Sequence record: NZ_CP118918.1
Length of the DNA stretch: 64,000 nt
Source of the DNA: a plasmid
Direction: 5' to 3' (one strand)
A program made the position numbers and the translations under genes. The notes beneath the pieces are model-generated. The model made no database searches and was not told where the DNA came from. It saw only the letters and a list, made by a program, of their open reading frames with translations. Numbering within the stretch: position 1 is the first letter of the stretch; each line of letters opens with the position of its first letter. This document shows positions 1-51,293 of the stretch, in pieces.

Positions 1-97
1 TGGGCGTCAATGCTGCTGGTATCGAGTCAGATCGGCGGGAAGAACGTCGAGAATCGGACAGATTCCACCGACTATCGCGGTCCGGTACTGATTTACG

Positions 98-1201
98 GTG
101 GTACCCGCATCGACCAGGCTGGCATCGAACTCGGTGAGCAGCTGGGTATGCGAGAGATGGCCTTTCATTGCGACCAGCAAGGCTGGCTCGGCGCAACCGT
201 ACTTGTGGACGTACATCGGGCCCAAGGGTGCTGCGCCCCGTGGGGGACGACTCCGTTTAACCCCGGCCAGCCCAAGTATCACTGGGTGTTCGAGTCTCCC
301 GCACGACTGGCTGCGCGGCCATGGCACGACAACGCCAAGGGGTTTGACGGGCTGCGGCCGGTGTCGTGGTCGGCCCTGGTCAGCCGCAAGGCTGCACGGT
401 ACGCCCGGCGACAAGGAGTGTCCGGTGCATCCAGGTGAGGGCGATGAGCAGGGCTGCTGGCAACAGTGGCGCACCGACCGTGACCGCGACGAGCAACGTC
501 GGGTAGCCCAGCAACGGCGCGACCGCAAGGTCCGCAACAAGCTCAGTCGCGTCGTGGACGTCCTTGACGAGCTGCTCGGCCCCGGTGAGCAGCAGCCCCG
601 TTGCCTCGGTGAGGTCGCGGACTTCTATGGCGTGAGCCAGTACCGGCTCTCAGCGGTGCTTGAGAAGCACCGCGACGAGTTCAGCCGAGATGGTTGGCAA
701 CCGCATCACCGTGGCCACGACGGGCACGACCTTTGGACTGACCGTGCTGTCGTACGAGCAGGACTGCTACTGGAAAAGTCCTCTGTAGCAGCCCATCTGC
801 GGCACCTGCTCGGTGTAGGAGATATTCCGCTGGTGTACTCCCAAAGTGATGCCCGCCTGGCTGAATGCCGGCAGCTCTACAACAAGGCTCTGACGGTCGT
901 TGCTGATATCCACGGCGAGTCCAGCACCGACGATCTGTGGCGAGCAATGCAGGGTGCGGATCGGTACGACCTGATGGCGATGGTGATGACCTTGGCCTCC
1001 CTGACCCCCTACGACCGTCCCAGCTTGGGGCAGTGGCTACGCGACATCAGCGCCCTCACCACAAAGGACGGCAGTATCGCTCGCGGTCTGGCGCTGCTGA
1101 TCCCTCAACGTCAAGCTATCGATGCGCGAAAACTCAAAGAGTCCGGGTCCGCACGATCGCACAGAGCGCGGGCCGACGACGAAGGAGCGGTGTGCCAATG
1201 A
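98..1201 (+). CDS. hypothetical protein (start uncertain; GC3 is convincing only from ~425 onward, alternative GTG start at 425)
   Basis: Long ORF with high third-position GC from ~440. Its stop TGA (1199-1201) overlaps the ATG (1198) of the next gene. No recognisable motif. Confidence 0.4.
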   Translation: MVPASTRLASNSVSSWVCERWPFIATSKAGSAQPYLWTYIGPKGAAPRGGRLRLTPASPSITGCSSLPHDWLRGHGTTTPRGLTGCGRCRGRPWSAARLHGTPGDKECPVHPGEGDEQGCWQQWRTDRDRDEQRRVAQQRRDRKVRNKLSRVVDVLDELLGPGEQQPRCLGEVADFYGVSQYRLSAVLEKHRDEFSRDGWQPHHRGHDGHDLWTDRAVVRAGLLLEKSSVAAHLRHLLGVGDIPLVYSQSDARLAECRQLYNKALTVVADIHGESSTDDLWRAMQGADRYDLMAMVMTLASLTPYDRPSLGQWLRDISALTTKDGSIARGLALLIPQRQAIDARKLKESGSARSHRARADDEGAVCQ

Positions 1202-2034
1202 GTTCCGCGTCCCACGCTCGCTCACCGATAGCCGAACGGCGTACTCGCGCTGAGCAGACCGAACGGCAGATTGCCTGCCTGTTACCTCCGCACACCCACT
1301 ACGTTCAACCACTCTCGGGAACGCTGGAAGTTCTGCTTCACAAGCCGTGCAGCCCGCTAGAGACGGTCAATGATGTGGATTCCGAGCTGGTCACGTTCTG
1401 GAGGGTCCTACGCGATCGGCCCGACGACCTTGCGCGGGCCTGTTCGTTGACCCCGCACTCGCGGGTGGAGTTCACCTCCGCGATTAGCGGTTCCCGACTT
1501 CCTCGTGACACCAACGAGGTGGAGGTTGCCCGACGAGTATGGGTCCGGCTCAATCATAGTCAAACTGGTGCTGCGCGGATGCGTCCGCAATGGCAGAACA
1601 CCGCAGCGCACCGCAGGACGGCGCCGGGCCATGATACTGCCATTGCTCAGATGACCGAGGTCGCCACCCGAATCAAGAGGGTGAGCCTGGAATCGGCCGC
1701 TCCTGTGGAGCTGATCGACTCGGTTGCGCGCCAACCCGGGGTGTGCATCTACCTCGACCTGCGAACCGAGGTCTTCGGCGCCCAGGGCGCCAGTCTCATC
1801 CATCACGCACGCGTCGACCCGACGCAGGTACTTCGGGCCGCGTCGAAGGCGAAAGCTGCCGTCGTGATCCGCGCCGAGCGCGATACGGTAGCGCACAGTC
1901 CTGTACACAGCTGGGCGTGCACGCCAGTGGGGGAGCACCGGGATAGCGCCACGGTGCACTTGTGGTCAAACCGTGTGCTGTCGATGCAAGAGCGTCTTTT
2001 CGACCTTGGCGACTACGGGTGGGCAGCAACGTGA
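1198..2034 (+). CDS. Dam-like (D12-class N6-adenine) methyltransferase homologue with degenerate SAM-binding and catalytic motifs
   Basis: HTHYVQPLSGTLEVLL...NDVDSELVTFWRVLRDRP aligns with the canonical Dam-type N-terminus at 3869 (HSHYVEPYAGGLSVL). The EPxxGG motif is replaced by QPLSGT, and the DPPY position appears as IYLDLRTE. ATGA start/stop coupling with the upstream ORF. Confidence 0.5.
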   Translation: MSSASHARSPIAERRTRAEQTERQIACLLPPHTHYVQPLSGTLEVLLHKPCSPLETVNDVDSELVTFWRVLRDRPDDLARACSLTPHSRVEFTSAISGSRLPRDTNEVEVARRVWVRLNHSQTGAARMRPQWQNTAAHRRTAPGHDTAIAQMTEVATRIKRVSLESAAPVELIDSVARQPGVCIYLDLRTEVFGAQGASLIHHARVDPTQVLRAASKAKAAVVIRAERDTVAHSPVHSWACTPVGEHRDSATVHLWSNRVLSMQERLFDLGDYGWAAT

Positions 2035-2369
2035 CCACAGCCGACACCATCGCTATTCGCGAGCAGCTGGTCGCGGTGTTGCGGGCCGCCGAAGCACCGA
2101 TGACTAGCGCCGAGCTGGCCAGCGTTCTACCGTGGCAGACCCACCGTCTCGATGTGGGCTGCGAGCTGGTGTGTCACGCACCTCGCCGGCCCACGGCGAT
2201 GCGGGTGGTCGAGTGTCATCGAACCTGGCATCTGGTGAGTCGTCCGCGGTCCTCACAGGACTCGCGCACAGGGATATATCGACATCTGAGGAGCTTGGCC
2301 CGTGCAGGGACCATCCGATCGATTGCATTGGGGCCGAGAAAAGTTCAGTGGGAGTTCGTAGGTGAATAG
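2031..2369 (+). CDS. small hypothetical protein, possible winged-helix DNA-binding
   Basis: GTG at 2031 overlaps the TGA of the upstream gene (GTGA). 'TSAELASVL' is an HTH-like stretch. Frame has high GC3. Confidence 0.3.
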   Translation: MTTADTIAIREQLVAVLRAAEAPMTSAELASVLPWQTHRLDVGCELVCHAPRRPTAMRVVECHRTWHLVSRPRSSQDSRTGIYRHLRSLARAGTIRSIALGPRKVQWEFVGE

Positions 2370-2379
2370 GAGAGTGACG

Positions 2380-2631
2380 ATGAGCAGGATCACCGTGTAC
2401 ACCAAGCCCAACTGCGTGCAGTGCACCGCGACGTTCAAGGCGCTCGACAAAGCGGGCATCACCTACGCGAAAGTCGACATCAGCGTCGATGCCGAGGCCC
2501 GCGACTACGTGATGGCCCTGGGCTACCTGCAAGCCCCCGTCGTGGTGGCCGGCGATGAGCACTGGAGCGGCTTCCGACCCGACCGCATCTCCGAAGTCAC
2601 GGCTCCAGCACTCGCGCAGCTATCCATGTAG
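2380..2631 (+). CDS. nrdH: NrdH-redoxin (glutaredoxin-like), copy 1
   Basis: MSRITVYTKPNCVQCTATFKALDKAGITYAKVDIS...LGYLQAPVVVAGDEHWSGFRPDRI. CVQC redox motif and NrdH length. Confidence 0.8.
   Translation: MSRITVYTKPNCVQCTATFKALDKAGITYAKVDISVDAEARDYVMALGYLQAPVVVAGDEHWSGFRPDRISEVTAPALAQLSM
2392..2590. repeat. inverted repeat arm 1 (nrdH copy), ~95% nt identity to the reverse complement of 16700-16900
   Basis: Nucleotide stretches accaagcccaactgcgtgcagtgcaccgcg... and ttcaaggcgctcgacaaagcggg.atcacctacgcgaaagtcgacatcagcgtcgat occur in both copies, in inverted orientation. Confidence 0.8.
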
Positions 2632-2663
2632 CGGTACAAACACTAGCGGGAGAAGAAGACCTC

Positions 2664-3872
2664 ATGACAGTCGTGGCGACCCCGTTTCAGGTCGGGGAAC
2701 ACGTGGTAGACGATGTGCATTGCCTTGAGGGACAACAGATTCTCCGAGAGGCCAAAGCAGCGAGATCACGCCCGCTGTGTTTGTGCCAGCCCGCCGGGGT
2801 ACAGATGTATATCGCTGCCGCTGGCGACAGCCTCATTGTCAAACGAATGCCCGGCACGGCGGCCGCACATGACCATCGGTGCCGGTCGTGGCTGCCTCCC
2901 AGCGAGCTATCGGGCTATGGCGCCGTTGCCGACCGGTCGATCGTTGACAACCCTGCCGACGGAACAACCACGCTGCGACTGGGATTTTCGCTGTCGAAGT
3001 CCGGCAATCGTGCCGCTCCAGAGCCTTCCGGATCGCCGGCAAGCGCGGTGCAGTCGGACGGCAACAAGTTATCCCTACGCGCTGTGCTGCACTATCTCTG
3101 GGATGAGGCGGAACTGACGACGTGGCACCCGGGCTTTGCGGGGCGGCGGCCGTGGGGTGTGGTGTACCGCCGGCTCCGGGATGCCGCCGATGGCAAGCTA
3201 GTCCGCAAAAGCCCCTTCGCCGCATCGTTGTTCATCCCGGAGCCCTTCTCGGCCGACTGCAAGGCCGAGATCGAGCAACGCCGGATTAAGGCTTGGGCTC
3301 CAGCGCGTAGACAGCCGGGGAAGCCCACCAAATTCCTGATCGGCGTGGGCGATATCAAGGCGATTGAGCCAGCCGCCCACGGGTTCAAGATGCAGGTCCG
3401 CCACCAGCCGGGCCACCCCTGGTTTCTCGATGAAGACCTGTACCGAAAAATGACCAAGCGCTTCGCCACAGAGCTGGAACTCTGGCAGATGGCTGATGCA
3501 GGTGACGTGCGGTTGGTGGCGGTAGCTACCTTCTCCGTGTCTCGGGCTGGTTACGCCAACGTAGAACAACTCTCTTTGATGACGACCGATCACAACTGGC
3601 TACCCTTCACCAGCGATGCCGAGCGCACCCTGCTGACAACTGCAATCGCAGATGATCGGTGTTTCCGGAAGGTATTGCCTTACAACGGGAGTTCCACAGC
3701 CTTGGCCTCTTTAATCTTCACCGACACCGCCCCGGCGATAGCCGCATTCATCGATCGCTGTGGAGGCGAGGACGACGACGACGACGAATCGATCGCGGGG
3801 CTTCCGGTCTGGAACTGGCGTACCGATGAAGATATGCCGGATTTGCCGTCACCTCTCGACGGTTCGGAATGA
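2664..3872 (+). CDS. hypothetical protein (402 aa), acidic DDDDDE C-terminus
   Basis: Continuous high-GC3 ORF. Its stop overlaps the ATG of the Dam-like gene at 3869 (ATGA). Confidence 0.5.
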   Translation: MTVVATPFQVGEHVVDDVHCLEGQQILREAKAARSRPLCLCQPAGVQMYIAAAGDSLIVKRMPGTAAAHDHRCRSWLPPSELSGYGAVADRSIVDNPADGTTTLRLGFSLSKSGNRAAPEPSGSPASAVQSDGNKLSLRAVLHYLWDEAELTTWHPGFAGRRPWGVVYRRLRDAADGKLVRKSPFAASLFIPEPFSADCKAEIEQRRIKAWAPARRQPGKPTKFLIGVGDIKAIEPAAHGFKMQVRHQPGHPWFLDEDLYRKMTKRFATELELWQMADAGDVRLVAVATFSVSRAGYANVEQLSLMTTDHNWLPFTSDAERTLLTTAIADDRCFRKVLPYNGSSTALASLIFTDTAPAIAAFIDRCGGEDDDDDESIAGLPVWNWRTDEDMPDLPSPLDGSE

Positions 3873-4081
3873 CCCCTTACCAGGTTGGAACAAACGCATT
3901 GTCAGCAACTGCCTTACGTCCGCCGTTCGCCTACTTCGGCGGTAAGCAGAAGATCGCCGTGGACATCGCCGAACTGCTAGCAGGCCATAGCCACTACGTG
4001 GAACCGTATGCTGGCGGACTCTCAGTATTGCAACTATCAATCACTATGGCCGTCCACTCACCCGAACCTGATGCCACGTGA
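3869..4081 (+). pseudogene. D12-class (Dam-like) N6-adenine DNA methyltransferase, N-terminal 70 aa only; disrupted by an IS21 remnant
   Basis: PPFAYFGGKQKIAVDIAELLAGHSHYVEPYAGGLSVL is the canonical Dam-family N-terminus with SAM motif I. The ORF terminates after 70 aa where istB-derived sequence begins. Confidence 0.7.
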
Positions 4082-4413
4082 ACAGCGTTGCGCCGGACCC
4101 CATTGGGCCGTCAAATCAGACATCATTCAACTGACTCTTGAGACAAGAGCTGGGCTACATGGAACTGGATCGCCGCGGCGCCGAGCTGCTGTTCCAGGTG
4201 CTCACCGAACGCGAAGAGAAAGCCTCGGTGGCCATTGCGTCAAACGAAAGCTTCTCCGGGTGGACCAAAACGTTCACCGACCCACGGTTGTGCGCAGCCA
4301 TCGTCGACCGACTCACCTTCGGCGGCAACATCATCGAAACCGGCACCGACTCCTTCCGCCTAGCGCACACCCGCGCCAAGACCAGCAACCAGAACCAGCC
4401 AACCGGTGACTGA
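4082..4413 (+). mobile_element. IS21-family remnant: C-terminal fragment of the IstB helper ATPase (coding 4138..4413)
   Basis: ELGYMELDRRGAELLFQVLTEREEKASVAIASNESFSGWTKTFTDPRLCAAIVDRLTFGGNIIETGTDSFRLAHT matches the IstB C-terminus. No istA and no IstB N-terminus are present. Confidence 0.7.
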
Positions 4414-4972
4414 GGATCTGCTCATCAAGCAGATCAGCTGCACCAGCGCTCCTCCGCCATGAGCCTCCACGGACCCCTTGCTAGGTAACCAGCTCGGCAG
4501 CATTTCCGGTTGCTGGCGACGGTTCAGCCTCCCAGACAACGCACATGGGCAGTGTCCCAGTATCGAAGAACTCGCGAGCCGCTTGAAGCATCACACCGTG
4601 GTCGACCAAACACCGAGGAAAGAAGCCGACCGTGGCATCACCGCGGGCGAACTCCACTTCACCGCCGCCGGCATCACCATCTCCCACACTGTGAAGCGGC
4701 GATTGGGATCGATCGTTGTCGGCAAACAGCAGCAGCCCGCCGCTTTGATGCCCCACCCCCAGCGACAAGGTTCCCGCCGAGCCAGCCACGCTCACCAACA
4801 CCGGCGCAGACCCTGATTTCGCCAGTGACTCAAGACGAGACTCCAGCTCTTCAGCATCGTTGACGTGCACTTCCTGGTCATCCCAACGGAGCAACATTCC
4901 TCAATTATCCGTGAACGCGATCAAAGCGCCACCCGCTCCTCGAAGCACACCAACTCGGCGTCAGCTGCCCGG

Positions 4973-5040
4973 GTGACTCCCAAATTCGTGAGCACAATCG
5001 CCTCCAAGGACACCCTGGCGACTCCGAAATTCGTGATCAA
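4973..5040 (+). promoter_or_regulatory. pair of 20-bp direct repeats GACTCC(C/G)AAATTCGTGA upstream of the 5101 gene
   Basis: 4973-4994 GTGACTCCCAAATTCGTGAGCA and 5019-5040 GCGACTCCGAAATTCGTGATCA, 18/20 identical, 46 bp apart, 60-130 bp upstream of the start codon. Confidence 0.4.
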
Positions 5041-5100
5041 ACGACTCCCGAATCAACGATCAAAACCAGCCGCAATCAGCGCGGAATAGGGCTTCCGCAC

Positions 5101-5541
5101 ATGTCGTACCCGCAGCGGACGATGGGGTACATGAACGAGAACAACAGCAACCGGTGTGTGATTCGCATTCTGGGTTTAGTTGACGGGACGCCAACCGATT
5201 TCGACGGCCAGTATGTGGTTGAGTACGACCCGAGCAGGACCGGCACGCAGCCAGTGACAGGTAAACCCATGCCGGTATTCCATCTGGTGACCACCCCCGA
5301 TATCAGTCAAGCGACGCGGTTCACTCCCGACGAGACGGTCGACCTGTACCGCGCCGTAGACCAACGTAACCCGATCCGGGCTGATGGTGAACCGAATCGC
5401 CCTCTCACTGCGTTCAGTGTGGAGACCGACACCCTTGCGGCGGCGCTGCCGCCTGCGGGATGGCACGTCGATCCGCACAATTCGCGCTACTGGCGCTGGT
5501 GGGACGGTACGGCCTGGACCAGCCATATCGCGGCGCGATGA
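5101..5541 (+). CDS. hypothetical protein with C-terminal DUF2510-like motif
   Basis: The C-terminus AGWHVDPHNSRYWRWWDGTAWTSH resembles the actinobacterial DUF2510 signature (W..P.....RYWDG..WT). Confidence 0.5.
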   Translation: MSYPQRTMGYMNENNSNRCVIRILGLVDGTPTDFDGQYVVEYDPSRTGTQPVTGKPMPVFHLVTTPDISQATRFTPDETVDLYRAVDQRNPIRADGEPNRPLTAFSVETDTLAAALPPAGWHVDPHNSRYWRWWDGTAWTSHIAAR

Positions 5542-5598
5542 TTCGGCAGTAGCGCAGCCGGGGACGTTCACGGCGTCGAGCTGCGTGTTCACAGGTTC

Positions 5599-8500
5599 CT
5601 ACCCACCTCGGCTGAATCCCTCGTCACGGTGAGCGGCGTTCCACATGCGGGTGTGGAGATCATGGGCGGTGGTGTTGCGCTGCTGGGCTTTTCGGTGGCG
5701 TTGCAGGGCGGTGGTGATGGCGGGTGTGTGGTGGTCGGGGTGTAGTCCGGCGGCTTGGGTGAGGGCTGCGTTGCTGTCGGGGCTGGCGTCGAAGTGGTTG
5801 ATGCGGCCGGTGGCGGCGGTGAGCACTGGCGACCACCGCAGTTCGGTGTGTAGCAGTTTCAGTAGTGGGGCGGCCGGTGGTGGTGGCCAGGTGGCGGTGT
5901 TGGTGTCGAGCAGGATGATCCGGGCGTGGGCGGTTGCCGCGGTCTCGGTGAGGTCGGCGATCGTTTCGGGGGAAATGTGTTCGGCGCGGTCGATGACGAC
6001 GATGGTGCCCGGTGCGCTGTCGTGCAGGTCCAGGGTGGCGGCGTCGATGACTGTGTTGGCGATCGGGGACAGGTCCGCATTGTCACAGATGGTGGCGGGA
6101 GCAGCCCAGATCAGCGGACGCTGCGCGTCGTGGGCGGCGCGTTCAAGGTGTTTCATCATGGGCAGCAGCGCGGCCCGGTCGGAGGCGTGCGCGGCGGTCA
6201 GCACGAACGGTGCATCGGTAAGCCGTCGTAGGCGGTCGGTGTCGATGTCGGGGTGTTCGCTGATCGGCAGTCGCTCTTGGAAAGCATGTTGACCGGCAGC
6301 GTCGAGCACCCGCAGTTCGGTGTCGATGCGGGGCAGCAGCTCGGTGATGTGTTCGGCGGTGCTGCGCTGTGCACGCGCGAATGCCTGTGCTGCGGCGAGC
6401 TCGGCGCGGTGGAGCTGGTCGCGCAGCGCTGCGCGGTCGGCGCGATGTCGGGCCAGCAGTGTGTCATCGTCGGCGCGGCATCGGCGCAGCAGTGCGTCGG
6501 CGTCGGCGTGGGTGACGATGTGCTCGCTGCCGCCGGCCGCGGCGGCGCGGGCTGCGGTGGCTTCGTCGAATGCGGGATGGAACTGTTCGGCGGGGCTGGT
6601 TGGGGGCAGCTGGTAGCTGGTCAGGAAGTTCAGGTGCTGGGTGGCCGAGGCGATATCGAGGGGGTCGGCGTCTGGGTCGGCGCGCAGGGTGTCGAGTTCG
6701 GTGCGGGCGTGGCCGATGAGTTCGAGGGCTTCGGCGTAGGTGGTTTCGGCGTGATGCCATTGGTCGAGCACGGCTTCGACGCGTGCCAGGAAAGGCCGGT
6801 CGGCGTCGGCCGCGGCGCGCATGCGCCGCAGTTCGTCGGTGGCGGCCAGGACGTGGGGTCCGCCACCGGCGGTCACGTGGGCGGCCAAGGCGCGTACCTG
6901 GGCGTCGGCGGCGGCGTAGCGGTCGCGCAGCGCGTGGACGTCGGCGCGGTGGGCGGCCAGCGCGGCGGCGGGGCTGGGCCGCACGGTGCTCAGGCTGTCG
7001 AAGTCGATCCCTGTATCGGGGGTGAAGTAGTCGTCGGCGTGCTCGGGTGGGGGCAGTTGATCGTCGGGGGCGGTGGGCTCGGTGAGGTCGTAGTCGTCTA
7101 GTCCGAGTGCGGCGGCAAGGTTGTTGGGGTCGGCCAACACGTCGTCGTGAGCGTGCTGGCGCCCCGGTGGTGTGTTCTCGATGTCGGGGTGCAGATGGGC
7201 GAGTTCTTCGTGTTCCTCCGGTGTCAGGGGCGCGGTGTCGGGCAGGGGAATGTCGTGGTCATAGGGGTCGGCGGTGGTGAACACCTCGATCGAGTAGGTG
7301 AGCAGTCGGGCGTACTCGTCGGGCCGTAAATGGTGGGTCAGGTGGGCGTCGGCGTCATAGAGATGTTCGGCGGCCACATGCAGCAGATCGCGCGGTGTCC
7401 ACTGGTCGGGGTCGGCGTTGCCGATCGCGGACACCAGTGCGGGGAAGGCGGGATCGGCGGCGATGGTTTCGGCCAGTTCGGTGCCGAACACGGTGTGCAG
7501 ATCGGGTAGCCAGTCCGGGCGCAGCCCACCGTTGGCGGTCTCCAACACCGCTGGTGTGAGGGTGCCGCACAGTCGCCACCACAATGCGGCGGCGGGCAGT
7601 TCGTCGGGCAGCGGGCGCTCAGCGGCGACGGTGCGTACGAGTTGGGTGATGTTGACTCCGGTGCGCGCGGCCGCGGCCAGGTGGTGGGCCAGCTGCGGCC
7701 AGTAGGGGTCGTGGCGGATGTGCGGGTTGATGGAGTCGATGAGGGTGTCGTAGCGGTTGGTGGTGGCATCAGCGCCGATGAGTTCGGCGGCGCGTTGTTC
7801 GAGTCCGCGTTGGGCGGCGCGGGTGCGGGCGGGGTATTGCTCGGCGCCGGCGATGCGGGTGTCGTTGTCCTCGACGGCGGTTGCGGCGCGATACACGGCC
7901 AGCTCGGCAGCCAGTTCAAGGTCTGTGCCGACCAGCGGTCGTGCCCATCGCGGCGCGGTCGCTGCGCTCCACTGGCGTGCGGTGGCGGTGACCTCGGCGG
8001 CCAGGTCGGTGACCCGCTGTGCGCGGGCGGCCAGGTAGGTGTGCCACTGCGGGTCGGCGGCCAGACGTTCGGGGATGGCGGGCAGCCAGGGCAGTGGGCC
8101 GGCGCCACCGGAGTGTGCACCGGTCGGATCGAGGCGCCAGTCGATGACCGCGGCTGGGTCGGCGGCGTTGTCGAATCCGCCGGAGGCGACCACTTTGTCG
8201 AGCCGTTTGAGGGGGTGGATGCCGGCGGCGGCGATCAACGCGAGGTGCTGGCGTAGCACCGGCCAGGCGGTAGCGGTGGTCAGTCCGGGCACGAGTTTCT
8301 CGGCGTGGGAATCCAGCTCGGCGTGCTGGGCGGGGCTCAGGCGTGATTCGGCGGCGGTGCCGACGGCGTGGGCGTACATCTGGGTGGCGGCGGCCAGGCG
8401 GGCAGCCGGGTCGGTGGCGGCGCGGGCCGCACTGGTGGCCGAGACTTGCGCAGCATCGCGGGCCAGGGCACGGGTCAATACGTCCACGGCGGTGTCGGGG

Positions 8501-11500
8501 TGGGTGGCTTTCGGCGACAGCACGCGGTGGGGGTCGTGCTCGGCGGTGGAGAAGTAGATGTGGTTGCCGTGCACTCCGCGGGTCAGCGCGGTGTACACCT
8601 GTTGGCGGGTGAGTTGATCGGAGCCCACGGTGTGGCAGCGGTAGCGGGCGGTCGCGCCTTGGGTGGCGTCGATGGTGCGGGCGTAGCCCAGGGTGACGTG
8701 GGAGCGGACGTAGGCGGCGGGCAGCCGTAGATGTGCGTGTGACTCCAAGTGCGTGACGGTGATCGAGCCGTCCGGATCGACCTCGGTGACTTCCCAGCGG
8801 TAGCCGTTGCGCACGAAGTCGGTGGCACCCAACGCGAGGGTGCGATCGTTGTGTTTGGTGAACACGAGGTCCCCGACGCTGGCGCGGGCCCCGGCCATCA
8901 ACACCGCTTCGATGCCGGTGGCGTGTTCTCCGAGTTCGGTCAGCCGGTGCAGCCGGGCGCGGTCGTTGAGTTCAGAAACCAGCTCGTGGGTCGGCGCCAA
9001 CAGCAGCGAGTGCTTGTCCTCAGCGATGTCGGATTGCCATGCTTGGAACGCCATATCGGAGGCGGCGGCTTGGGTGCCGACATGCACGCGCTGGGCATCG
9101 AGATAGAACGCGATCCCTGATGGGTCGCCGTCGCGCAGCGCGAGACCGGCTTGGGCTTCGGAGGCCGAGGCGAACCGCATCACCTGGGACAAGGTGATCG
9201 CCCCGTGCTCGTGGGCCAGGTCGCGCAGCACACCGCCGGCGCTGATCGAGGACAGCTGTTTGTCGTCCCCGACGAGGCGCACGCTGGCGCCGCGGGCCAA
9301 GGCGACCGCGATCATCGACGCCAGCGCCAACGTGCCGGCCTTGCCGGCTTCGTCCACGATGATCAAGGTGTTCTCATCGATCGCGTCGTACCACTGCCGG
9401 GCGGGGTCGCCGGGGGAGATGTCGGGATTGTCGGTGAGCCAGTTGAACTTATCGAGGGTGTCACCGACTTCGACGTCGATTTCTTCGCGCAACAATTGCG
9501 CGGCACTGGCGCTGGGAGACAACCCGATGACGGTGCCCCCGGCGCCTTCCCAAGACCGGGCCAGCGCGGCCGTGGCGGTGGTTTTCCCCGACCCGGCCGG
9601 GGCCAACGCGAGCATCACGCGCTGCCCGCGGCACGCCATTTCGCGGACCAGTTGGGCTTGACCGGCGTTGAGTTCGCGGCGGTGCGCGGCCTGGGCGAGT
9701 AGCTCAATTTCGACATCGGCGGCGGGCACGGTGCGGCCGTCGCGCAGTGTGGCGGCGGCCAGGATTTGCCGCTCAGCGGCCAGGATTTCGGGGCTGGTGT
9801 AGGTCTGCGTCCCGGCTTGGCGGTACACGCTGGTCCCGTCGCGGCGCCGCAACACCGCGGGCTCACCGAGGTCGGTATCAGGACTGGATGCGTGTCGGAT
9901 GCTGCGCGGTTCGGTCAGGGCGGCGTCGGTGATGAGTTCGGCGATGCCGTCGATTCCGGCGTGCCCGGTGACGCGGACCACCCGCAATGCTTCGGCCAGT
10001 ACATGGGTGCGGTTCCAGGTGGACCGCGCTGCGGAGACGGTGGCGATGACCTGGGCGGCGCGGGCGTTGATCCACCCTGCGGTGACCTCGGCGGGTGTCG
10101 TGGTGCGCCCGGCCAAGGAGCGGGCGATCATCGCGTTGACCGCTTCGTCGCTGCCCAGCAGGCCGACGGCTTGGGTGCGCCATTCTGCGCGTTGCTCGGC
10201 CAGCGATCGGGGTTCGTGTTTGGCGTCGCGGGTGGCCAGGGTGGCTTGTTGGAACATCGCGATCGACTCCGGGGTGGTCGGCTCGCGGCCGTGGGCGGCC
10301 TGAAATTTCTTGGCCAGCACCGCATATTCGGCGTCGATGGCGGCGCGGCGTGAGGACCACAGTTCGTTGAGTTCGCGGCTGACGCCGACGACTTCGCGGA
10401 CCTCGCGCTTGCCTTCGCGGGCATCGCCGCGGGCGGCGAACCGCATCCCCAGCTCGTCGCCCAGGTAGGCCTCCAGGCGTGAGTTGTACAGCTCGGAGGC
10501 CGCGACGGTGGAGGCGTAGAGCGGGCGGCCATCGAGGGCGTACCAGCGGGGGATGCCGTCGGTGCCGCGGGCGCGGACCTTGTTGGAGATCGCGACGTGG
10601 GTGTGCAGGCCGGGGTCCGAGGCGCGGGTGTCGCGGTGGAGAAATTCGGCGGTGATGAAGCCTTCGGTGTCGACTTGGGCGATTCCTTGGGCGCCGATGC
10701 GGGTGTAGGCGGCCTGATCTTGCAGGAAGTCCAGGGCGTCCTGGACGGCCTTGCGGTGGCATTCCTCGATCTGTTTGGCGATCGGTTCCGGGCACAGCGC
10801 GTACAGTGCGGACACGCTTTTGACCGGGGTGAAGGTCATGTCGTAGCCGGCGACCGAGGTGGTTTGGTCGCGGGTGCCGCGGGCGATGAACCCGGTCAGT
10901 TCGCGCTCGTCCAGGGGTGCGCGGCGGTGCTGTTCTTCGAACATGTCGGTGGCGATGTCGGTGCGCATCTGCGCCCGCACTGTCTCGTCAATGGCGGCGT
11001 TCCAGTGCGCACCGACCGACAGGTTGTGATCCCGATACGCCTCAGCGAGCCGCTGCTGCAGCTCGGTTTCGCCGGCGTTGACCCGGAACGGGCGACCGAG
11101 GGTGGTCGCGGTCAGCGCTGAGTTTTTGCGTGCCCCTTGGGCAATGAGCTGCTTGGTCAGCGCTGAGGCGTTCGGGTGCACCCCCAGCCCGAACAGGGCC
11201 TTCATCTGGTCCTCGGTGACCTCGGAGCCTTCGGCCACTGACCACAGTCGCTCTCCGGCGTCGGTACGGGTCCAGTTCTGCGAGCCCGCGGACAAGCCGG
11301 CCAGTCCGCGTCCGCCCCAGCGGCCCGGTGTCTCGCCCTTGGAGGAGTAGTAGTCGCCCAACGATTCCGGGCCATGGGTGCGGTCGTGGGCAGCCACCTG
11401 CCGCACCAGGTACAAGTACCCGGAGCCAGCGGTGAGCTTGTGGATGCCCGCATTCACCTGCCCAGCGCACCGATTTCTCACGACGAAACCAAGGCTGCTT

Positions 11501-11511
11501 TCCGCCAGCAT
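5599..11511 (-). CDS. traA: MobF-family conjugative relaxase/helicase (TraA/TrwC-like), 1970 aa
   Basis: N-terminal relaxase motif IHKLTAGSGYLYLVRQVAAHD...LGDYYSSKGETPGRWGGRGLAGL. RecD-like helicase P-loop LAPAGSGKTTATAALARSW. Long Ala-rich C-terminal extension. Single uninterrupted frame. Confidence 0.85.
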   Translation of the reverse strand: MLAESSLGFVVRNRCAGQVNAGIHKLTAGSGYLYLVRQVAAHDRTHGPESLGDYYSSKGETPGRWGGRGLAGLSAGSQNWTRTDAGERLWSVAEGSEVTEDQMKALFGLGVHPNASALTKQLIAQGARKNSALTATTLGRPFRVNAGETELQQRLAEAYRDHNLSVGAHWNAAIDETVRAQMRTDIATDMFEEQHRRAPLDERELTGFIARGTRDQTTSVAGYDMTFTPVKSVSALYALCPEPIAKQIEECHRKAVQDALDFLQDQAAYTRIGAQGIAQVDTEGFITAEFLHRDTRASDPGLHTHVAISNKVRARGTDGIPRWYALDGRPLYASTVAASELYNSRLEAYLGDELGMRFAARGDAREGKREVREVVGVSRELNELWSSRRAAIDAEYAVLAKKFQAAHGREPTTPESIAMFQQATLATRDAKHEPRSLAEQRAEWRTQAVGLLGSDEAVNAMIARSLAGRTTTPAEVTAGWINARAAQVIATVSAARSTWNRTHVLAEALRVVRVTGHAGIDGIAELITDAALTEPRSIRHASSPDTDLGEPAVLRRRDGTSVYRQAGTQTYTSPEILAAERQILAAATLRDGRTVPAADVEIELLAQAAHRRELNAGQAQLVREMACRGQRVMLALAPAGSGKTTATAALARSWEGAGGTVIGLSPSASAAQLLREEIDVEVGDTLDKFNWLTDNPDISPGDPARQWYDAIDENTLIIVDEAGKAGTLALASMIAVALARGASVRLVGDDKQLSSISAGGVLRDLAHEHGAITLSQVMRFASASEAQAGLALRDGDPSGIAFYLDAQRVHVGTQAAASDMAFQAWQSDIAEDKHSLLLAPTHELVSELNDRARLHRLTELGEHATGIEAVLMAGARASVGDLVFTKHNDRTLALGATDFVRNGYRWEVTEVDPDGSITVTHLESHAHLRLPAAYVRSHVTLGYARTIDATQGATARYRCHTVGSDQLTRQQVYTALTRGVHGNHIYFSTAEHDPHRVLSPKATHPDTAVDVLTRALARDAAQVSATSAARAATDPAARLAAATQMYAHAVGTAAESRLSPAQHAELDSHAEKLVPGLTTATAWPVLRQHLALIAAAGIHPLKRLDKVVASGGFDNAADPAAVIDWRLDPTGAHSGGAGPLPWLPAIPERLAADPQWHTYLAARAQRVTDLAAEVTATARQWSAATAPRWARPLVGTDLELAAELAVYRAATAVEDNDTRIAGAEQYPARTRAAQRGLEQRAAELIGADATTNRYDTLIDSINPHIRHDPYWPQLAHHLAAAARTGVNITQLVRTVAAERPLPDELPAAALWWRLCGTLTPAVLETANGGLRPDWLPDLHTVFGTELAETIAADPAFPALVSAIGNADPDQWTPRDLLHVAAEHLYDADAHLTHHLRPDEYARLLTYSIEVFTTADPYDHDIPLPDTAPLTPEEHEELAHLHPDIENTPPGRQHAHDDVLADPNNLAAALGLDDYDLTEPTAPDDQLPPPEHADDYFTPDTGIDFDSLSTVRPSPAAALAAHRADVHALRDRYAAADAQVRALAAHVTAGGGPHVLAATDELRRMRAAADADRPFLARVEAVLDQWHHAETTYAEALELIGHARTELDTLRADPDADPLDIASATQHLNFLTSYQLPPTSPAEQFHPAFDEATAARAAAAGGSEHIVTHADADALLRRCRADDDTLLARHRADRAALRDQLHRAELAAAQAFARAQRSTAEHITELLPRIDTELRVLDAAGQHAFQERLPISEHPDIDTDRLRRLTDAPFVLTAAHASDRAALLPMMKHLERAAHDAQRPLIWAAPATICDNADLSPIANTVIDAATLDLHDSAPGTIVVIDRAEHISPETIADLTETAATAHARIILLDTNTATWPPPPAAPLLKLLHTELRWSPVLTAATGRINHFDASPDSNAALTQAAGLHPDHHTPAITTALQRHRKAQQRNTTAHDLHTRMWNAAHRDEGFSRGG

Positions 11512-14435: not shown

Positions 14436-15977
14436 TCAGGTGGTGACGGTGGCGGGTTCGCCGGTCAGCGTTTCCACGACGAGTCCGACGAGATCGCGGG
14501 CGGCTGGTGGGGTGACGGCGTTGCCTGCCAGGCGGACTTGCTCTCGTCGGGTGCCGAGCATGCGGTAGTCGGTGGGGAAGTCCATCGCGGCGGTGATTTC
14601 GCGGGGCTCCAGCATCCGGAAGAACACGTCGTTGATGTCGATGTGCTGTGGCGGTGCGGGGGCGGGTCCGCTGGTGATCAGGCTGTGGCGCTCGACGGTG
14701 GTGACGGTGGGCAGGGCTTCGTTGGCAGGGGTGCTGCCGCCTTTGCCGTAGTAGCTCGTGATCAGGGGGCGGGGCTCGGTGGGGTTCCAGCGTCCGTGGA
14801 ACACGTCGCCGCGTGTGACGGGGGTGTAGACCAGGCCGTGGTGGTTGCCGGATGCGGTGACCGTCGAGAGTGCTTCGGTGGTGCAGCGGGCATCGCTGGA
14901 GCCGCCGCGGAGTTCGGCGATGAAGGGCGCGAAGGCGATGCCGTCGTTCTCGCGGGTGGTTCGGGTGGCGATGGGTTGATCGACGGCGACAGCTTCGTTG
15001 CGCCAGGTGCCTCCGGTCGGGACCAGCAGCGCGGTCTCGCTGCGCGTGGTCATGGTGCGTGTCGGCTGGTCGACCGGGGCGGCGTTCTTGCCGTCGCGTC
15101 CTTCGACGGGTACCAGCATGGGCTGCCAGTAGCGCTGGATTCCGGCGGCGATGCGGGCCATGGTCTTGTCGGCCAGGGGGCGGGTGCGCTCACCGATGCG
15201 TGTGCCGGTCAGTGACCAGTCGATGATGTCGGCGGCCGGGCGGTAGGTCGGCTCGATCACCTGGTTGCGGCACGCGACGTTGGGGCAGCGGTAGACGTAC
15301 TGGGCGCGGTACTTACCCCACGGTGCGCGGTCGGTGCGCTTGAAGCTCTGGACGGCGCGGACCGGTCCGCAGGCGGGGCACACCGCGTAGGGGGACACGA
15401 TCCGCTTGACGTCGGGGCGGGGATCGCCTGCGCGGGTGAAGATCGCATAGAACCGGTCTCTCGACTGGGGGGCGCCGCGACCGAGCAGTTGCGCATGCAT
15501 TGAGTTCAGGTAGACCATCTGGCCGACGTAGCCGATGGATTCCATTGCCATGCGCCACGCCTGGAAGGGCGGCCAGAACACCACGTCGACCACGTTCTCC
15601 ACGATCACGGCGCGGTACATGTGGTACTCGGAGAAGCGCACGACATCCCACATGGTGGCGCGGGAGCGCTCGGCGGCGGCCTCGGGGAGAATCTCGCCGA
15701 ACAGATCCGGTTGGGCGTCTTGACGTTTGCGGCCCTGGGCGATGCTGTGCTTGGTGCAGCTCGGGCTGGCCCACAGCAGATCAGTGGTGGGGAACAGACG
15801 CGGGTCAATCTGGGAGAGGTCGGCCTGAATGTGGTCGGTGTCAGGGTGATTGGCGCTGTGGGTTTCGATGGCCCTGTCCCAGTGGTTACTGGCGACCCTG
15901 GCCACGACGTTGTTGATCATCACAGCACCAGCCGTGGAGCCTCCAGCGCCGCAGTAGAGGTCGGTGATCGTCAGCAT
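14436..15977 (-). CDS. DNA (cytosine-5)-methyltransferase with unusual motif IV (PSCT instead of PCQ) and a Cys4 insertion
   Basis: Motif I DLYCGAGG, motif IV LWASPSCTKHSIAQG, motif VI VIVENVVDV, motif VIII QSRDRFYAIFTR, C-terminal GNAVTPPAARDL. Insertion CPACGP...CPNVAC. SD GAGAGGA 7 nt upstream of the ATG. Confidence 0.85.
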   Translation of the reverse strand: MLTITDLYCGAGGSTAGAVMINNVVARVASNHWDRAIETHSANHPDTDHIQADLSQIDPRLFPTTDLLWASPSCTKHSIAQGRKRQDAQPDLFGEILPEAAAERSRATMWDVVRFSEYHMYRAVIVENVVDVVFWPPFQAWRMAMESIGYVGQMVYLNSMHAQLLGRGAPQSRDRFYAIFTRAGDPRPDVKRIVSPYAVCPACGPVRAVQSFKRTDRAPWGKYRAQYVYRCPNVACRNQVIEPTYRPAADIIDWSLTGTRIGERTRPLADKTMARIAAGIQRYWQPMLVPVEGRDGKNAAPVDQPTRTMTTRSETALLVPTGGTWRNEAVAVDQPIATRTTRENDGIAFAPFIAELRGGSSDARCTTEALSTVTASGNHHGLVYTPVTRGDVFHGRWNPTEPRPLITSYYGKGGSTPANEALPTVTTVERHSLITSGPAPAPPQHIDINDVFFRMLEPREITAAMDFPTDYRMLGTRREQVRLAGNAVTPPAARDLVGLVVETLTGEPATVTT

Positions 15978-16644: not shown

Positions 16645-16911
16645 TCATGCGGGCATCGCTGTTGCATCGGGTGCGGATACCGCAGGGTTGCCGGCGGCCT
16701 TGATGCGGTCGGGTCGGAAGCCGCTCCAGTGATCATCGCCGGCTACCACGACGGGGGCTTGCAGGTAGCCCAGGGCCATCACGTAGTCGCGGGCCTCGGC
16801 ATCGACGCTGATGTCGACTTTCGCGTAGGTGATCCCCGCTTTGTCGAGCGCCTTGAAAGTCGCGGTGCACTGCACGCAGTTGGGCTTGGTGTACACGGTG
16901 AAGGTGGACAT
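16645..16911 (-). CDS. nrdH: NrdH-redoxin, copy 2 (aa 5-68 identical to copy 1, different C-terminal tail)
   Basis: MSTFTVYTKPNCVQCTATFKALDKAGITYAKVDISVDAEARDYVMALGYLQAPVVVAGDDHWSGFRPDRI. Confidence 0.8.
   Translation of the reverse strand: MSTFTVYTKPNCVQCTATFKALDKAGITYAKVDISVDAEARDYVMALGYLQAPVVVAGDDHWSGFRPDRIKAAGNPAVSAPDATAMPA
16698..16896. repeat. inverted repeat arm 2 (nrdH copy)
   Basis: Reverse complement matches 2392-2590 with a few mismatches. Confidence 0.8.
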
Positions 16912-34650: not shown

Positions 34651-37600
34651 CTACTTGGAAGACCAGGCATCAATGACGAGTCTGCCGCTGGCAGTGAGCT
34701 CTTCGAGCCAGGCGAGGGCTTGATCTTCGTCGTCGTTACCCGATTGGGTGCGGTAGACATCAAGCAGGGCTCGGTTGACCCCGGGAACTAATCGGGCCCC
34801 GTCTCCGCACACTCGCAGGTGCCTCTGTTCTTCTTCGATCATGCGCCAGACTTCGCGGGCGTCCTTCCTGATGCGATCCTGAACGAAGGCGCAGTTGTCT
34901 TCGGGTGCAGCGAAGTATGTGGGCCGTAGATCAACTACCCCGTTGGATTCTGCTTCCTCAAGTTCCTCTCGGTGAAGGAAGTCGACGTCCGGGTGGTCGC
35001 AACCGAAGTAGCAGAGTAGCGGCGCGGCGTCTGCGCTGTGGGCCCGGTCCTGGATCACGCCACGAAACGGTGCCAGTCCGGTGCCAGCGCTGATGACGAT
35101 TGCCGGTTGATCATTCTCCAGACGGAAGTCATCTGAGCACGGCAGCACGCGGCCCAGCACCGTGTCTCCTTGTTGCAGTTGGCGCACATAGGTGGAGGCA
35201 GTTCCGCGATATGTTCCCTCGCCTGACAGGTGAGGGGCATCGACAGCGGCCACCATCAAGTCGATGTGGCCTGGCTGCGCGGCCGGTGACGACGACACGG
35301 AGTACCGCCGCGGAGCCAGTGCCGGCAGCATAGCGAGGAAGGTGTCAACGCCGAGCTCGACGGACCGATAGCTTTCGAGTAGATCCAGCAGCGACACTCG
35401 AGCGGTCGTGATTCTGGCAGCGAACTCGTCGGCGTCGTCGACGAGCTTCTGTAGCGCGGTGCGCTCGGGCGGGCATGAGCACCGCGCGATCATTGTCTCG
35501 ATCTGCTCGATCGTGGCTGGGCTCTGCAGTTCCACGTATCGACTGAAGACCTCGCCCAAGGTGATGGGTCGTTCGGTGGGGATGTGATCCGGGACCCGAC
35601 CGTGACGGTGGAGGATCACCAGCTCGGTGAGGTCGGTGCCGAAGCGGCGTTGCACTCGTGCGATCAGTTCGGCCGGGTTCTGTGGAAGCAGTGCAAGGTG
35701 ATCGGCGGTGCGATACGTCGTCCCTGCTGGTAGTTCGAGGCGAAGAAACATCTTCGATCGCCCCAGTGGGTGCGTGGTGTCGACCAGTTCATGGGCCGAG
35801 ACGACCGTCATCGGTTCGAGACCGTGCCTGCTCTGCAGGTCCTGGTCCAACGACCACACTGCTGACTCGATGGTGAGGCCGGCGTCGTGTTCATCCGGCG
35901 GCTCGGCGGTGATGCCGTCACGAGGCAGGATCGTCGCCCACAGGTCGGTGTTCCAGCGTTCGACTTCTCCGGTGAAGTCGCCGGCGACGTCTGCGGCGCC
36001 GCGGTCGATGAGCCGGTGCCCGCCGGCGGCTGATAAGCGTGCGTCGATCGTGGCGGGGACGTGTTGGTACGTGGCAGCCCAGTTGCGGTCACCGACTCCG
36101 AGGACTGCGTATCGCAGTCCGTCGAGGGAGCCAGGGGTCACGAATTCCAGCCAGGGCAGGAATTCATCGGCGTCGTCGGTGGGCTTGCCGTTGTAGGACG
36201 ATGCCACCACCAGTACCACCGAGTCCGAACGCAATTGCCCGACCGCATCGTTCAAGGAACCCAGCGTTGCGTTGTAGCCGGCTTGTGTGGCGCGGTCGGT
36301 GATATCCCGGGCCAGTCGTGCCGATGTGCCCAAATTGGACCCGTGCAGCACCGTGAGCGTGGTTCCCAGCTCGACTGCGTTGCCGGGCTGCGCCACCACA
36401 GTGCTGGCGTGGCGCCCGGTGTCGGCCGGCTGAACGCTGCGATCAGCGGGTAGGCGGCGGGCCAGCTTCAGCGTCAGGCCGCCCGGTTTGATCGTCAAGG
36501 CTTCGGTGATCTTGAGTTGATAGTTGGAGTAGTCGTTGAGGCGGTACCGGTGAATGATCATGGCCAGGACAAGGGTTGCTTCGTGGAGCGCGAATTGCCG
36601 TCCAATACAGGCGCGTTCACCGTTGCCGAAGGGCTTGTAGAGGTGCATGGGTCGTGTGCTGACGTTTTCGGTGTTGAAGCGCTCGGGATCGAATGCTTCA
36701 ACGCTGTCGCCCCATTCGGGTGAACGATGCAGAGGCGGGGTGAGGATCGTTATAACGTCGCCGCGTTTGACTGCGTAGCGTCCGCCGATGACAGTGTCTT
36801 CGAAGGGTTCGACAGCGTAGCCGGGAGCTGTTGGCCACAGCCGAAGAGTTTCATTGAGGATCTGCTGGACGTAGGTCAACCGTCCGATGTCGGTGTAGGA
36901 CGGATCGATGTCGTCCGAGGTTCCCCACAAGGTATCGACTTCAGCTTGGGCGCGGGCCAGCACCGTTGGGTTCTTGGCGAGGTAGTAGAGAGCAAAAGAC
37001 ATGGCACCGCTGGTGGTTTCGTGTCCGGCGACCAGGAAGGTGATGACTTGGTTGCGGACGTTCTCCGGGTCCAGGCGTTGCCCGGTGTCTTTGTCAGCAG
37101 TGTTGAGCATGCGGCCGAGCAGGTCGTCGGTGTGGTTGTCGCCAGATTCGAGGCGCTGGCGCACAACGTCGTCCACCACGTTGTGCATCAAAGCGATGTC
37201 GCGCTCGTACTGCTCGCCGCTTGTGCGTTTGAACGCGTTCATGATCGGCAGGGTCGCCGCCAGACCTTGCGCGTGGTGCAGCGCTCGGCTCATGGCTTCG
37301 ACAAAGGGATGAGGGGTCTCTCGCTGGAACGATTCCAGGTCGAAACCGAATCCGCACAGGCCGATGGTGTCGAAGGTCAACCGCGTCATGTCCTCCGGTA
37401 TCTCTACTACTGAGGCAGCGGCTGCGTAACGGTCCCACCGATCGAGGAGCTTTCGCGCGACATCGACCATTGTGGTGTGGTACTGGCTCATAGCCTCGAG
37501 CGAGAACGCGGGGAGCAGAATGTTGTGGGCCTTGCGCCAGTTGGGTTCATCGTTGAAAGCGGTGAACAGGCCGTCGCCGCCGATGTCGCGCAGCTGAACT

Positions 37601-37845
37601 AGCTCGGTGTAGACGCTCTTACAGAACCTGGCGGTGTCCGAGAGTTCGGCCACCAGGTCTCCGTCCGAGACGACGATCGTGTTGGTGTTCGCGATCCTCA
37701 GCCGCATGATCGGTCCCAGTTCCTTGGCCTGGGCCATCATCCACTGCATGGGGTTCTCGCGCGGGACGCTGAAGGTGTGCCCAACCAGCGGTAGTCCTGG
37801 TGGCTCGGGGATAGAGCCGAAGTGAGCAACAGGTGAGGTGGTCAA
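34651..37845 (-). CDS. self-sufficient cytochrome P450 fused to an NADPH-P450 reductase (CYP102/P450-BM3-like), 1064 aa
   Basis: Heme loop [25 protein letters not shown] is almost identical to BM3 [25 protein letters not shown]. C-terminal flavodoxin-like and FAD/NADPH reductase domains. Length matches BM3. Confidence 0.9.
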   Translation of the reverse strand: [1064 protein letters not shown]

Positions 37846-37957
37846 GATGGGTTCCTTTCCGTGGCGGGGGGCTCAGGCGTGGCGACGGGTCGATAATGTG
37901 AGAGCTATCGCGGGGAAGTACCGCGCCAGACGTTCTTTGTGGCCCGCTGCGGGTCTG

Positions 37958-48668: not shown

Positions 48669-48875
48669 GTCTTCTCTCCCTTTCGACGTCGGGTACTTAA
48701 CAGTACCCTCCGTACCGTACAGCGATGTGAGTGCCACCACAATGTTCGGTGGGTGCAAAGCCGGGGCGAAGAGAATCCTGACCGGCAATCACCATCGAAT
48801 CCGGTCGAGGTGGTGGCTGTCGTCCCGAGATTCCTTCGCCTGCGCCGCCCTAACTCTCGGAGTGAAACGGACCGC

Positions 48876-51190: not shown

Positions 51191-51293
51191 TTTGAAAGTC
51201 CCTCTCGATTCATTGCGGATCCAACTTCGACCCACAATATCTGGGTCATGTGACCCGGGGTCACATGACCCAACTTAGAGGTAGGCTGATCAG

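Follow-up and report, generated by a model that had tools for sequence, protein, structure and literature searches.

What has become of two damaged relatives of the DNA adenine methyltransferase Dam that are carried close together on one plasmid, and does either of them still have a function? The question is raised by the window, the 64,000-nucleotide stretch of plasmid record NZ_CP118918.1 that was analysed, which holds a full-length but motif-deficient ("degenerate") Dam-fold gene at 1198–2034 and, further downstream, the 5' remnant of a canonical Dam gene of the D12 class starting at 3869. Taken jointly, the evidence makes it probable that the degenerate gene encodes a non-catalytic Dam-fold DNA-binding factor of a conjugation module, and that the remnant is what is left of an unrelated dam gene lost through insertion of an IS21-family insertion sequence (IS) and a deletion. 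The plasmid pSMC-8_2 of Mycobacterium sp. SMC-8 (locus L001), 95% identical to the window across its first 6 kb, provides the closest comparison for both genes. The features from its first part are listed in Table 1.

Genuine homology and the Dam fold link the degenerate protein to an enzyme family whose signatures it lacks. It gave no match to PF02086 at E≤1 in the Pfam search, and TIGR00571 reached 16.8 bits against a cut-off of 114.85, covering residues 24–83 only. Within its clade, PF02086 matched 2 of 15 members, at best with E=0.004. As a positive control, the intact Dam of pSMC-8_2 matched the same profile over residues 22–250 with E=1.4e-17. Homology was evident with phmmer: several hundred actinobacterial enzymes that score with PF02086 were returned at ~40% identity, with E-values of the order of 1e-44 to 1e-37, the lowest being 4.5e-44. 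An AlphaFold2 (AF2) model based on 110 sequences had a predicted local distance difference test (pLDDT) value of 84.3 and a predicted template modelling (pTM) score of 0.83, with uncertainty restricted to the N-terminal 14 residues and a loop at ~190–205. The best 24 matches of this model in the PDB, as ranked by Foldseek, were all D12 enzymes (7m6b/Mcbe1, EcoDam, DpnM and T4Dam; E 2e-9 to 3.5e-4, probability 1.0, template modelling score 0.57–0.73), and the protein is accordingly modelled with confidence in the Dam/DpnM fold. The relationship is less accessible to sequence comparison with solved structures: a single-sequence search of the PDB yielded nothing at E≤10, a profile of the clade alone matched solved D12 enzymes (7m6b) weakly and over residues 35–78 only, and the mixed profile A2 was required to reach DpnM and EcoDam.

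Alignment with canonical D12 enzymes located the losses. Where these have PPFxYxGGK, the window protein has SPIAER and the clade SP(L/I)AER; in motif I, YVQPLSGT or YVQLQSGG replaces YVEPFAGS, with loss of the Glu; and in motif IV the window protein reads YLDLRTEVF against the canonical YVDPPYL, the clade consensus being Y(L/A)DLRxxxxGAQGA against YVDPPYLGxTR. The Ser of the canonical LSGY has become Arg in the degenerate clade. The initial annotation, made from the sequence alone, had reported QPLSGT for EPxxGG and DLRTE for DPPY; both peptides are present and occupy these positions. No [DNS]PP[YFWH] motif occurs anywhere in the degenerate protein or in any clade member, and 15/15 members have lost motif IV together with GGK and the Glu of motif I. 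What has been kept comprises the motif-II ETxND, the core strands, the recognition-domain segments FWRVLRDRP, LTPxSR and ARRVW, and, in the hairpin region, a conserved Arg and an invariant Trp. Twelve alignment columns are conserved in both the degenerate and the canonical clades with different residues, and a further 31 are conserved in the degenerate clade only, so that the replacement motifs look like the product of remodelling, not of erosion.

In N6-adenine methyltransferases, (D/N/S)PP(Y/F/W) positions and stacks the flipped adenine, and its substitution abolishes or cripples catalysis. Because this motif holds the flipped base, the degenerate protein would be unable to methylate adenine and would no longer act as a DNA methyltransferase. 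The retained recognition-side motifs and the hairpin Arg and Trp fit a DNA-binding role, in which the protein would still contact DNA through its recognition domain, possibly flipping or probing a base.

The clade to which the protein belongs consists of 14 clusters at 90% identity (P0001–P0014) and P0121, at 37% identity. Its named members come exclusively from Mycobacteriaceae, with P0008 alone present on 154 contigs. There are three subclades, only 36–48% identical to one another, across which 64 columns are invariant. In a neighbour-joining tree, the window protein, P0001–P0013 and P0121 form one clade, and the pSMC-8_2 Dam falls among the canonical enzymes. Among the 150 nearest representatives at 50% identity, four full-length, unframeshifted proteins lack motif IV, namely P0004, P0121, P0142 and P0186. 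Two of these are singletons and D12 homologues of independent origin, P0142 (L014; phage-like context with an HNH gene) and P0186 (L016; a ParA-like gene downstream overlaps it by 4 bp). Single motif-IV substitutions were found elsewhere in P0131 (DPPT; on a 1-kb contig), P0243 (DPTY), P0094 (DAPY) and P0262 (DPPR), and P0261 is a D12 enzyme with an apparent intein just ahead of the DPPY position.

The degenerate open reading frame (ORF) is intact wherever it was checked: neither premature stops nor frameshifts interrupt it in the 14 loci and 15 protein clusters examined. Pairwise Nei–Gojobori ratios of non-synonymous to synonymous substitution (dN/dS), computed for unsaturated comparisons with dS up to ~0.9, were 0.16–0.31 for the whole gene and 0.13–0.45 when the core (residues 24–187) and the C-terminal third (188–278) were taken separately. 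The same comparisons gave 0.07–0.24 for neighbouring genes, including 0.07–0.23 for the gene of the 258-residue protein immediately upstream (up258). Judged by these ratios, the degenerate gene is maintained under purifying selection and is not decaying, and the suggestion of the initial annotation that this copy had been retained is borne out by the ratios, the intact reading frames and the clade-wide conservation of the replacement motifs. Loss of catalytic residues, purifying selection and a conserved context, which together define a pseudo-enzyme kept for a non-catalytic role, are all found here.

That context is the distal end of a transfer operon resembling a type IV secretion system (T4SS). 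The degenerate gene is part of the core of a MobF plasmid family of Mycobacteriaceae. In five independent loci, pSMC-8_2, L002, L003, L008 and djl-10_1 (L011), it occupies the same place in a series composed of an AAA_10 (VirB4-like) ATPase, proteins of ~707, 236, 263 and 258 residues, the degenerate Dam, a winged-helix-like protein and a convergent TrwC relaxase, and this position is kept in at least ten loci. Most junctions of the operon are 4-bp overlaps. The start of the degenerate gene overlaps up258 in an ATGA (1198–1201), and at its other end the stop codon shares a GTGA (2031–2034) with the GTG start codon of the winged-helix gene, which suggests translational coupling to both neighbours. 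The winged-helix gene follows in pSMC-8_2, L002, L003, L008, djl-10_1 and the P0121 contig (L013); in the last of these, where the Dam-like protein is only 37% identical, all three genes, with up258 first and the winged-helix gene last, are likewise present. Together with these two co-translated proteins, the degenerate protein would most likely assist conjugative transfer in DNA processing or regulation.

For the neighbours themselves, 22 homologues of up258 were found, all from Mycobacteriaceae where the source names them. Its AF2 model is all-helical with a pLDDT of 68, and Foldseek gave non-significant local matches to DNA-binding domains of the MerR/Xis type (best E=0.8), which are a hint only. 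An M. kansasii homologue of the 263-residue protein has a precomputed DUF4326 match; a visual guess that this protein is ASCH-like was unsupported. PADLOC returned just generic MTase_II matches that end before motif IV, and nothing for the neighbouring genes, and a scan of positions 1–5700 for promoters and terminators revealed nothing exceeding the expectation from shuffled sequence.

Annotation of the family is inconsistent. Members P0008–P0011 are called "DNA adenine methylase" in NCBI records, and in pSMC-8_2 the full-length degenerate gene is intact at L001 7198–8034, where the gene table lists only a 384-nt "hypothetical protein" (7651–8034). Given the motif losses described above, these proteins are almost certainly not DNA adenine methylases, and the degenerate protein should not be filed as one despite the names.

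The second Dam-like gene has a different history. In pSMC-8_2, the end of a DUF1173 gene overlaps, in an ATGA, the start of an intact gene for a 343-residue Dam with DPPY and a Cys-rich C-terminal tail. Homology of the window to this arrangement ends at 4030, at Dam codon 54, and resumes at 5069, so that 1038 bp stand in place of 849 bp of dam. The 70-codon stub ORF (3869–4081) matches PF02086 at profile positions 1–35 (E=1.2e-4), in agreement with the D12 N-terminus noted initially. The accompanying claim that the stub runs into istB after 70 codons holds in so far as the ORF and the istB 3' fragment are real, but the Dam sequence ends at codon 54 and is followed by 16 unrelated codons up to the stop at 4079–4081, and the istB fragment begins 54 nt further on in another frame, with no fusion. 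A tblastn search with the intact 343-residue homologue found no Dam sequence in the window beyond codons 1–54 and the last seven codons, stop included, which survive beyond the IS at 5069–5089. Neither istA, whose absence had been correctly noted, nor another istB is present in the 64 kb.

The replacement is composed of 116 bp of filler, the sequence for IstB residues 184–275, an opposite-strand Imm1 gene and two or three IS21-type terminal units ending in ...AAAACCA at 5068. The 5068/5069 boundary is the exact point at which homology to pSMC-8_2 resumes. The right-end units, GACTCC(C/G)AA(A/T)TTCGTGA, match the left end of an element in pTY66_01 (L046) in inverted orientation, with 95% identity over 40 nt, and are also found at its right end; that element, at about L046 1190–5560, is a complete IS21-family element of 4.4 kb. 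The window copy shares with the family the istB C-terminus and the repeated terminal units ending in CA. Of the full organisation, with istA–istB and multiple terminal repeats at the ends, it retains the right part only, lacking the left end, istA and istB codons 1–183; it is a remnant and no functional member of the family. The passengers between istB and the right end also differ, being Imm1 in the window and a TetR gene with two hypothetical genes in the pTY66_01 element. The simplest history consistent with these junctions is that an IS21-family element carrying the Imm1 passenger inserted at approximately dam codon 337, and that a later deletion, reaching from inside istB to dam codon 55, removed the left end of the IS, istA, istB codons 1–183 and dam codons 55–336. 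The initial description of a Dam gene truncated by an IS21 istB fragment was therefore right in spirit and differed in mechanism, which would have been insertion near the 3' end followed by deletion.

With motif loss in the first gene and truncation of the second, adenine methyltransferase activity is unlikely for either copy, as originally surmised, and the segment examined would carry no functional D12 methyltransferase. The two genes had further been described as the last members of ATGA-coupled pairs forming a duplicated two-gene cassette. The ATGA overlaps exist (1198–1201 and 3869–3872), but the degenerate gene is itself overlapped by the winged-helix gene and so is not the last of its series. 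Duplication is not supported: the upstream genes are unrelated, one encoding DUF1173 and the other up258, which has no Pfam match; the Dam-like proteins are 41% identical, no closer than the degenerate protein is to any actinobacterial D12 enzyme; the tree separates the pSMC-8_2 Dam from the degenerate clade; and the degenerate gene belongs to the core of the transfer operon, whereas DUF1173–dam is part of a variable accessory insert.

The variability of that insert is documented by the DUF1173 genes of other replicons. Among 27 DUF1173 loci, Dam is intact and adjacent in two, displaced by 1.1 kb in one, partial in one and a frameshifted stub of residues 16–50 in three, the same stub being seen in the djl-10 plasmid. 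No D12 gene lies within 4 kb in 19 of the 27, which include all betaproteobacterial loci, and at two further DUF1173 loci the downstream D12-like gene is the degenerate one only. The stubs of djl-10_1 (L011 11056–11161) and L020–L022 stand downstream of an intact DUF1173 gene and are independent of the window remnant; they end ~13 bp ahead of the window breakpoint and continue into different DNA. DUF1173 has been described as a PD-(D/E)XK fold lacking the active-site signature, with an N-terminal zinc motif (PMC3045609). A type II restriction–modification pair of DUF1173 and Dam was considered and rejected in view of the missing active-site signature, the 19/27 loci without D12 and the lack of a PADLOC match; since DUF1173 stays intact where Dam has been destroyed, a role as restriction partner is rejected. 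From the winged-helix gene to the relaxase gene, the plasmids have a variable accessory hot spot with an nrdH–DUF1173–dam insert, whereas the adjoining degenerate gene never varies, and the Dam remnant is a case of ordinary IS-mediated gene loss within this hot spot.

Other rearrangements were observed in the same stretch. Approximately 234 bp between nrdH and DUF1173 in pSMC-8_2 (L001 8673–8905) are missing at window positions 2632–2663. On contig_5 of smrl_JER01 (Mycobacterium sp.; L035/L045; 99% identity in DUF1173), Dam is intact and DUF1173 is split between residues 97 and 98, with its parts kilobases apart, another sign of a rearrangement hot spot.

Several points weigh against the joint reading. 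The loop that takes the place of DPPY is weakly modelled, with a pLDDT of 56 for residues 191–200. Because D59 of motif II, G41 of motif I and D187 of motif IV never change within the clade, the degenerate protein could bind S-adenosylmethionine (SAM) or S-adenosylhomocysteine, or support some remodelled chemistry. The link with conjugation would come solely from operon position, and the operon partners have no recognisable function, Pfam having given no match to up258 or to any of the operon proteins of 263, 236 and 707 residues. In the M. kansasii-type plasmids (L017), TcpC, AAA_10, a DUF4326 protein and up258 are followed directly by the winged-helix gene, and the degenerate gene is absent; as these plasmids manage without it, the transfer system does not need it in every case. 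A T4SS-like locus of the M. kansasii type was shown to be necessary for transfer of pRAW, and such mycobacterial transfer loci consist largely of proteins of unknown function (PMC4173767). From its fixed place in one set of operons and its absence from the M. kansasii-type operon, the degenerate gene would have entered the distal end of the transfer operon long ago, in a single plasmid lineage, and have been fixed there since. As regards the second gene, the 116 bp at 4031–4146 are unmatched in PLSDB and the fetched loci, and insertion plus deletion leaves them unexplained.

The function can be specified further only tentatively. A pseudo-methyltransferase with a remodelled, conserved pocket, serving with up258 and the winged-helix protein as a sequence-specific and perhaps base-flipping DNA-binding subunit of the conjugation machinery, maybe at the origin of transfer (oriT) or at promoters of transfer genes, is a possible but doubtful assignment.

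Somewhat less probable is an anti-defence or decoy role, in which the dead methyltransferase would withdraw SAM, mask the plasmid's restriction sites, or bind and poison a restriction–modification or other defence component of the host. It is in keeping with the observation that plasmids commonly carry methyltransferases for anti-restriction, orphan methyltransferases having been described in leading regions (PMC11541004). It also accords with the prophage or integrative and conjugative element (ICE) orphan methyltransferases that are the nearest canonical relatives, and with the conservation of the remodelled pocket. The gene, however, lies at the distal end of the T4SS-like operon beside the 3' end of the relaxase gene, outside the variable island and presumably outside the leading region. 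In other MobF plasmids oriT is found upstream of the relaxase gene; if this applies here, the end of the operon would enter the recipient late, which argues against an early anti-restriction role. In addition, the neighbouring accessory hot spot varies while the degenerate gene never does, PADLOC recognised only the generic MTase_II, and stoichiometric occlusion of sites is implausible.

That the protein is still an active methyltransferase, on DNA or another substrate, with a non-canonical site built from DLR...GAQGA, R225 and SPLAER, is improbable. In its favour are the invariance of D59, G41 and D187, selection over the whole protein including its C-terminal third, and replacement motifs that are conserved, not random. 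However, three parts of the pocket have gone at once (GGK, the Glu and aromatic residue of motif I, and PPY in motif IV), the residue two positions past the canonical Tyr varies among Leu, Phe and Tyr, and we know of no N6-adenine methyltransferase that works without a PP(Y/F/W)-type motif.

A non-catalytic regulatory partner of an active Dam, such as the neighbouring canonical one, in a heterodimer of the METTL14 or DNMT3L type is less plausible still. Eukaryotic pseudo-methyltransferase partners provide the precedent, and the degenerate gene co-occurs with a canonical Dam in pSMC-8_2, SMC-4 and some metagenome-assembled genomes. Most plasmids with the degenerate gene, however, have no canonical D12 gene: H24, H25 and djl-10 show a single D12-like place per record, the flanks in L002 and L003 contain none, and the degenerate gene is intact where Dam has been destroyed (window, djl-10, L021 and L022). 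Least credible of all is a functionless relic carried passively, for which the lost catalytic motifs and the failed Pfam and NCBIfam thresholds could be cited, given dN/dS of 0.16–0.31 over dS up to ~0.9, reading frames free of stops and frameshifts, the 64 invariant columns, the conserved coupling to both neighbours and the lack of any conserved overlapping gene at the locus as an alternative source of the dN/dS signal; a decaying pseudogene is likewise contradicted by the selection data.

Returning to the preferred reading of a non-catalytic DNA-binding factor, the degenerate protein can be set against known systems. With the D12 class (EcoDam, T4Dam, DpnM and Mcbe1/7m6b; PF02086, α-group), it shares the fold, the motif-II ND and the recognition-domain helices, and the sequence homology runs via the actinobacterial members. 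The class has (D/N/S)PP(Y/F/W), FxYxGGK and the motif-I E/F, all of which the degenerate protein lacks, and it is found in restriction–modification pairs or early regions of phages, whereas the degenerate gene is inside a conjugative-transfer operon. The nearest relatives, at ~40% identity, are actinobacterial orphan D12 enzymes such as P0015 (Nocardia), P0083 (Kribbella) and the pSMC-8_2 Dam, and orphan enzymes of this kind from actinobacterial prophages, ICEs and plasmids are the probable ancestors of the degenerate gene. They possess DPPY, GGK, EPFxG and a PF02086 match, all missing in the 1198 gene, and their positions vary where that of the 1198 gene is fixed. The truncated 3869 gene, by contrast, is a true member of the orphan group. 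In METTL14, DNMT3L, ciliate MTA9 and TFB2M/mtTFB, a methyltransferase fold was kept after catalytic loss for nucleic-acid binding or scaffolding. These eukaryotic proteins partner an active paralogue or a polymerase, whereas the degenerate gene has no consistent active partner and resides in a plasmid transfer operon; the likeness is conceptual, with a Rossmann-type fold and selection after motif loss common to both. Pseudo-methyltransferases retained in this way are familiar from eukaryotes; in the literature searched, no bacterial or plasmid Dam-type pseudo-methyltransferase was found.

Table 1. Features of the first part of the window, in order of position, with the evidence for each.
Feature	Position	Strand	Evidence and remarks
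263-residue family gene, 3' part; preceding operon gene	10–438	+	Homologous to L002 4440–5231; annotated in pSMC-8_2; no Pfam match
up258, 258-residue protein, ATGA-coupled to the degenerate Dam gene	425–1201	+	ORF; no Pfam match
Degenerate Dam-fold gene, 278 residues	1198–2034	+	phmmer homology, AF2 fold, motif losses, dN/dS
Winged-helix-like protein, 112 residues	2031–2369	+	Weak HTH_20/TrmB/ScpB matches; GTGA overlap with the stop of the degenerate gene
NrdH-like glutaredoxin, with which the accessory insert begins	2380–2631	+	TIGR02194, E=1.4e-30; absent from P0008/P0009-type plasmids L002 and L008
DUF1173 gene, 402 residues, ATGA-coupled to the Dam remnant	2664–3872	+	PF06666, E=3e-116
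Canonical D12 Dam 5' remnant, codons 1–54	3869–4030	+	89% amino-acid identity to pSMC-8_2 Dam residues 1–54; ORF stop at 4079–4081
116-bp filler at the deletion junction	4031–4146		Matches nothing in PLSDB or the fetched loci
istB 3' fragment, IstB residues 184–275 of 275	4135–4413	+	tblastn, 91% to pTY66_01 IstB; PF01695, E=3e-20, profile positions 161–236 of 238
Imm1-family immunity-protein gene, passenger in the IS21-family element	4481–4897	-	PF14430, E=4e-10
Right terminal repeats (IRR) of the IS21-family element, outer end at 5068	4968–5068	+	Repeat units match the ends of the pTY66_01 element
Last 6 sense codons of the Dam gene and stop	5069–5089	+	AAISAE* (AAISGE* in pSMC-8_2, where homology starts again at L001 11119)
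DUF2510 gene (context)	5101–5541	+	PF10708; stands after the intact Dam in pSMC-8_2
MobF/TrwC relaxase, 1970 residues, convergent with the operon	5599–11511	-	Annotated mobF in pSMC-8_2 and an M. dioxanotrophicus plasmid; TrwC, AAA_30 and related Pfam matches in L002

Beyond these features, a second NrdH-like gene is found at 16648–16911 on the minus strand, a 200-bp part of which is 98% identical to 2389–2588 in inverted orientation; such a repeat could mediate an inversion. Near this gene, a C5-cytosine DNA methylase gene of 513 codons (14439–15977, minus strand; PF00145, E=4e-21) was detected, and the window thus does contain a DNA methyltransferase gene that appears intact, although its class is not that of Dam. 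Cargo genes on the minus strand at 34651–37872, 47304–48788, 49880–51274, 54096–56636 and 58693–61323 encode a BM3-like fusion of P450, flavodoxin and FAD/NAD reductase, a second P450, a PapA-like acyltransferase, a helicase with six HA domains and a protein combining T5orf172 and ResIII.

For these Mycobacteriaceae plasmids, methylome and restriction–modification inferences would be wrong if the database names of the degenerate proteins were trusted. The clade offers a tractable bacterial case of a pseudo-methyltransferase that has been retained and selected, and a Dam-fold DNA binder coupled to two small proteins beside a relaxase is a candidate DNA-processing or regulatory accessory of mycobacterial conjugation. 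If the protein does serve as a DNA-binding subunit of the conjugation machinery, it would represent a prokaryotic counterpart of the repurposing seen in METTL14, DNMT3L or TFB2M, and would add a component so far overlooked to the T4SS-like transfer system of mycobacterial plasmids, which is poorly understood.

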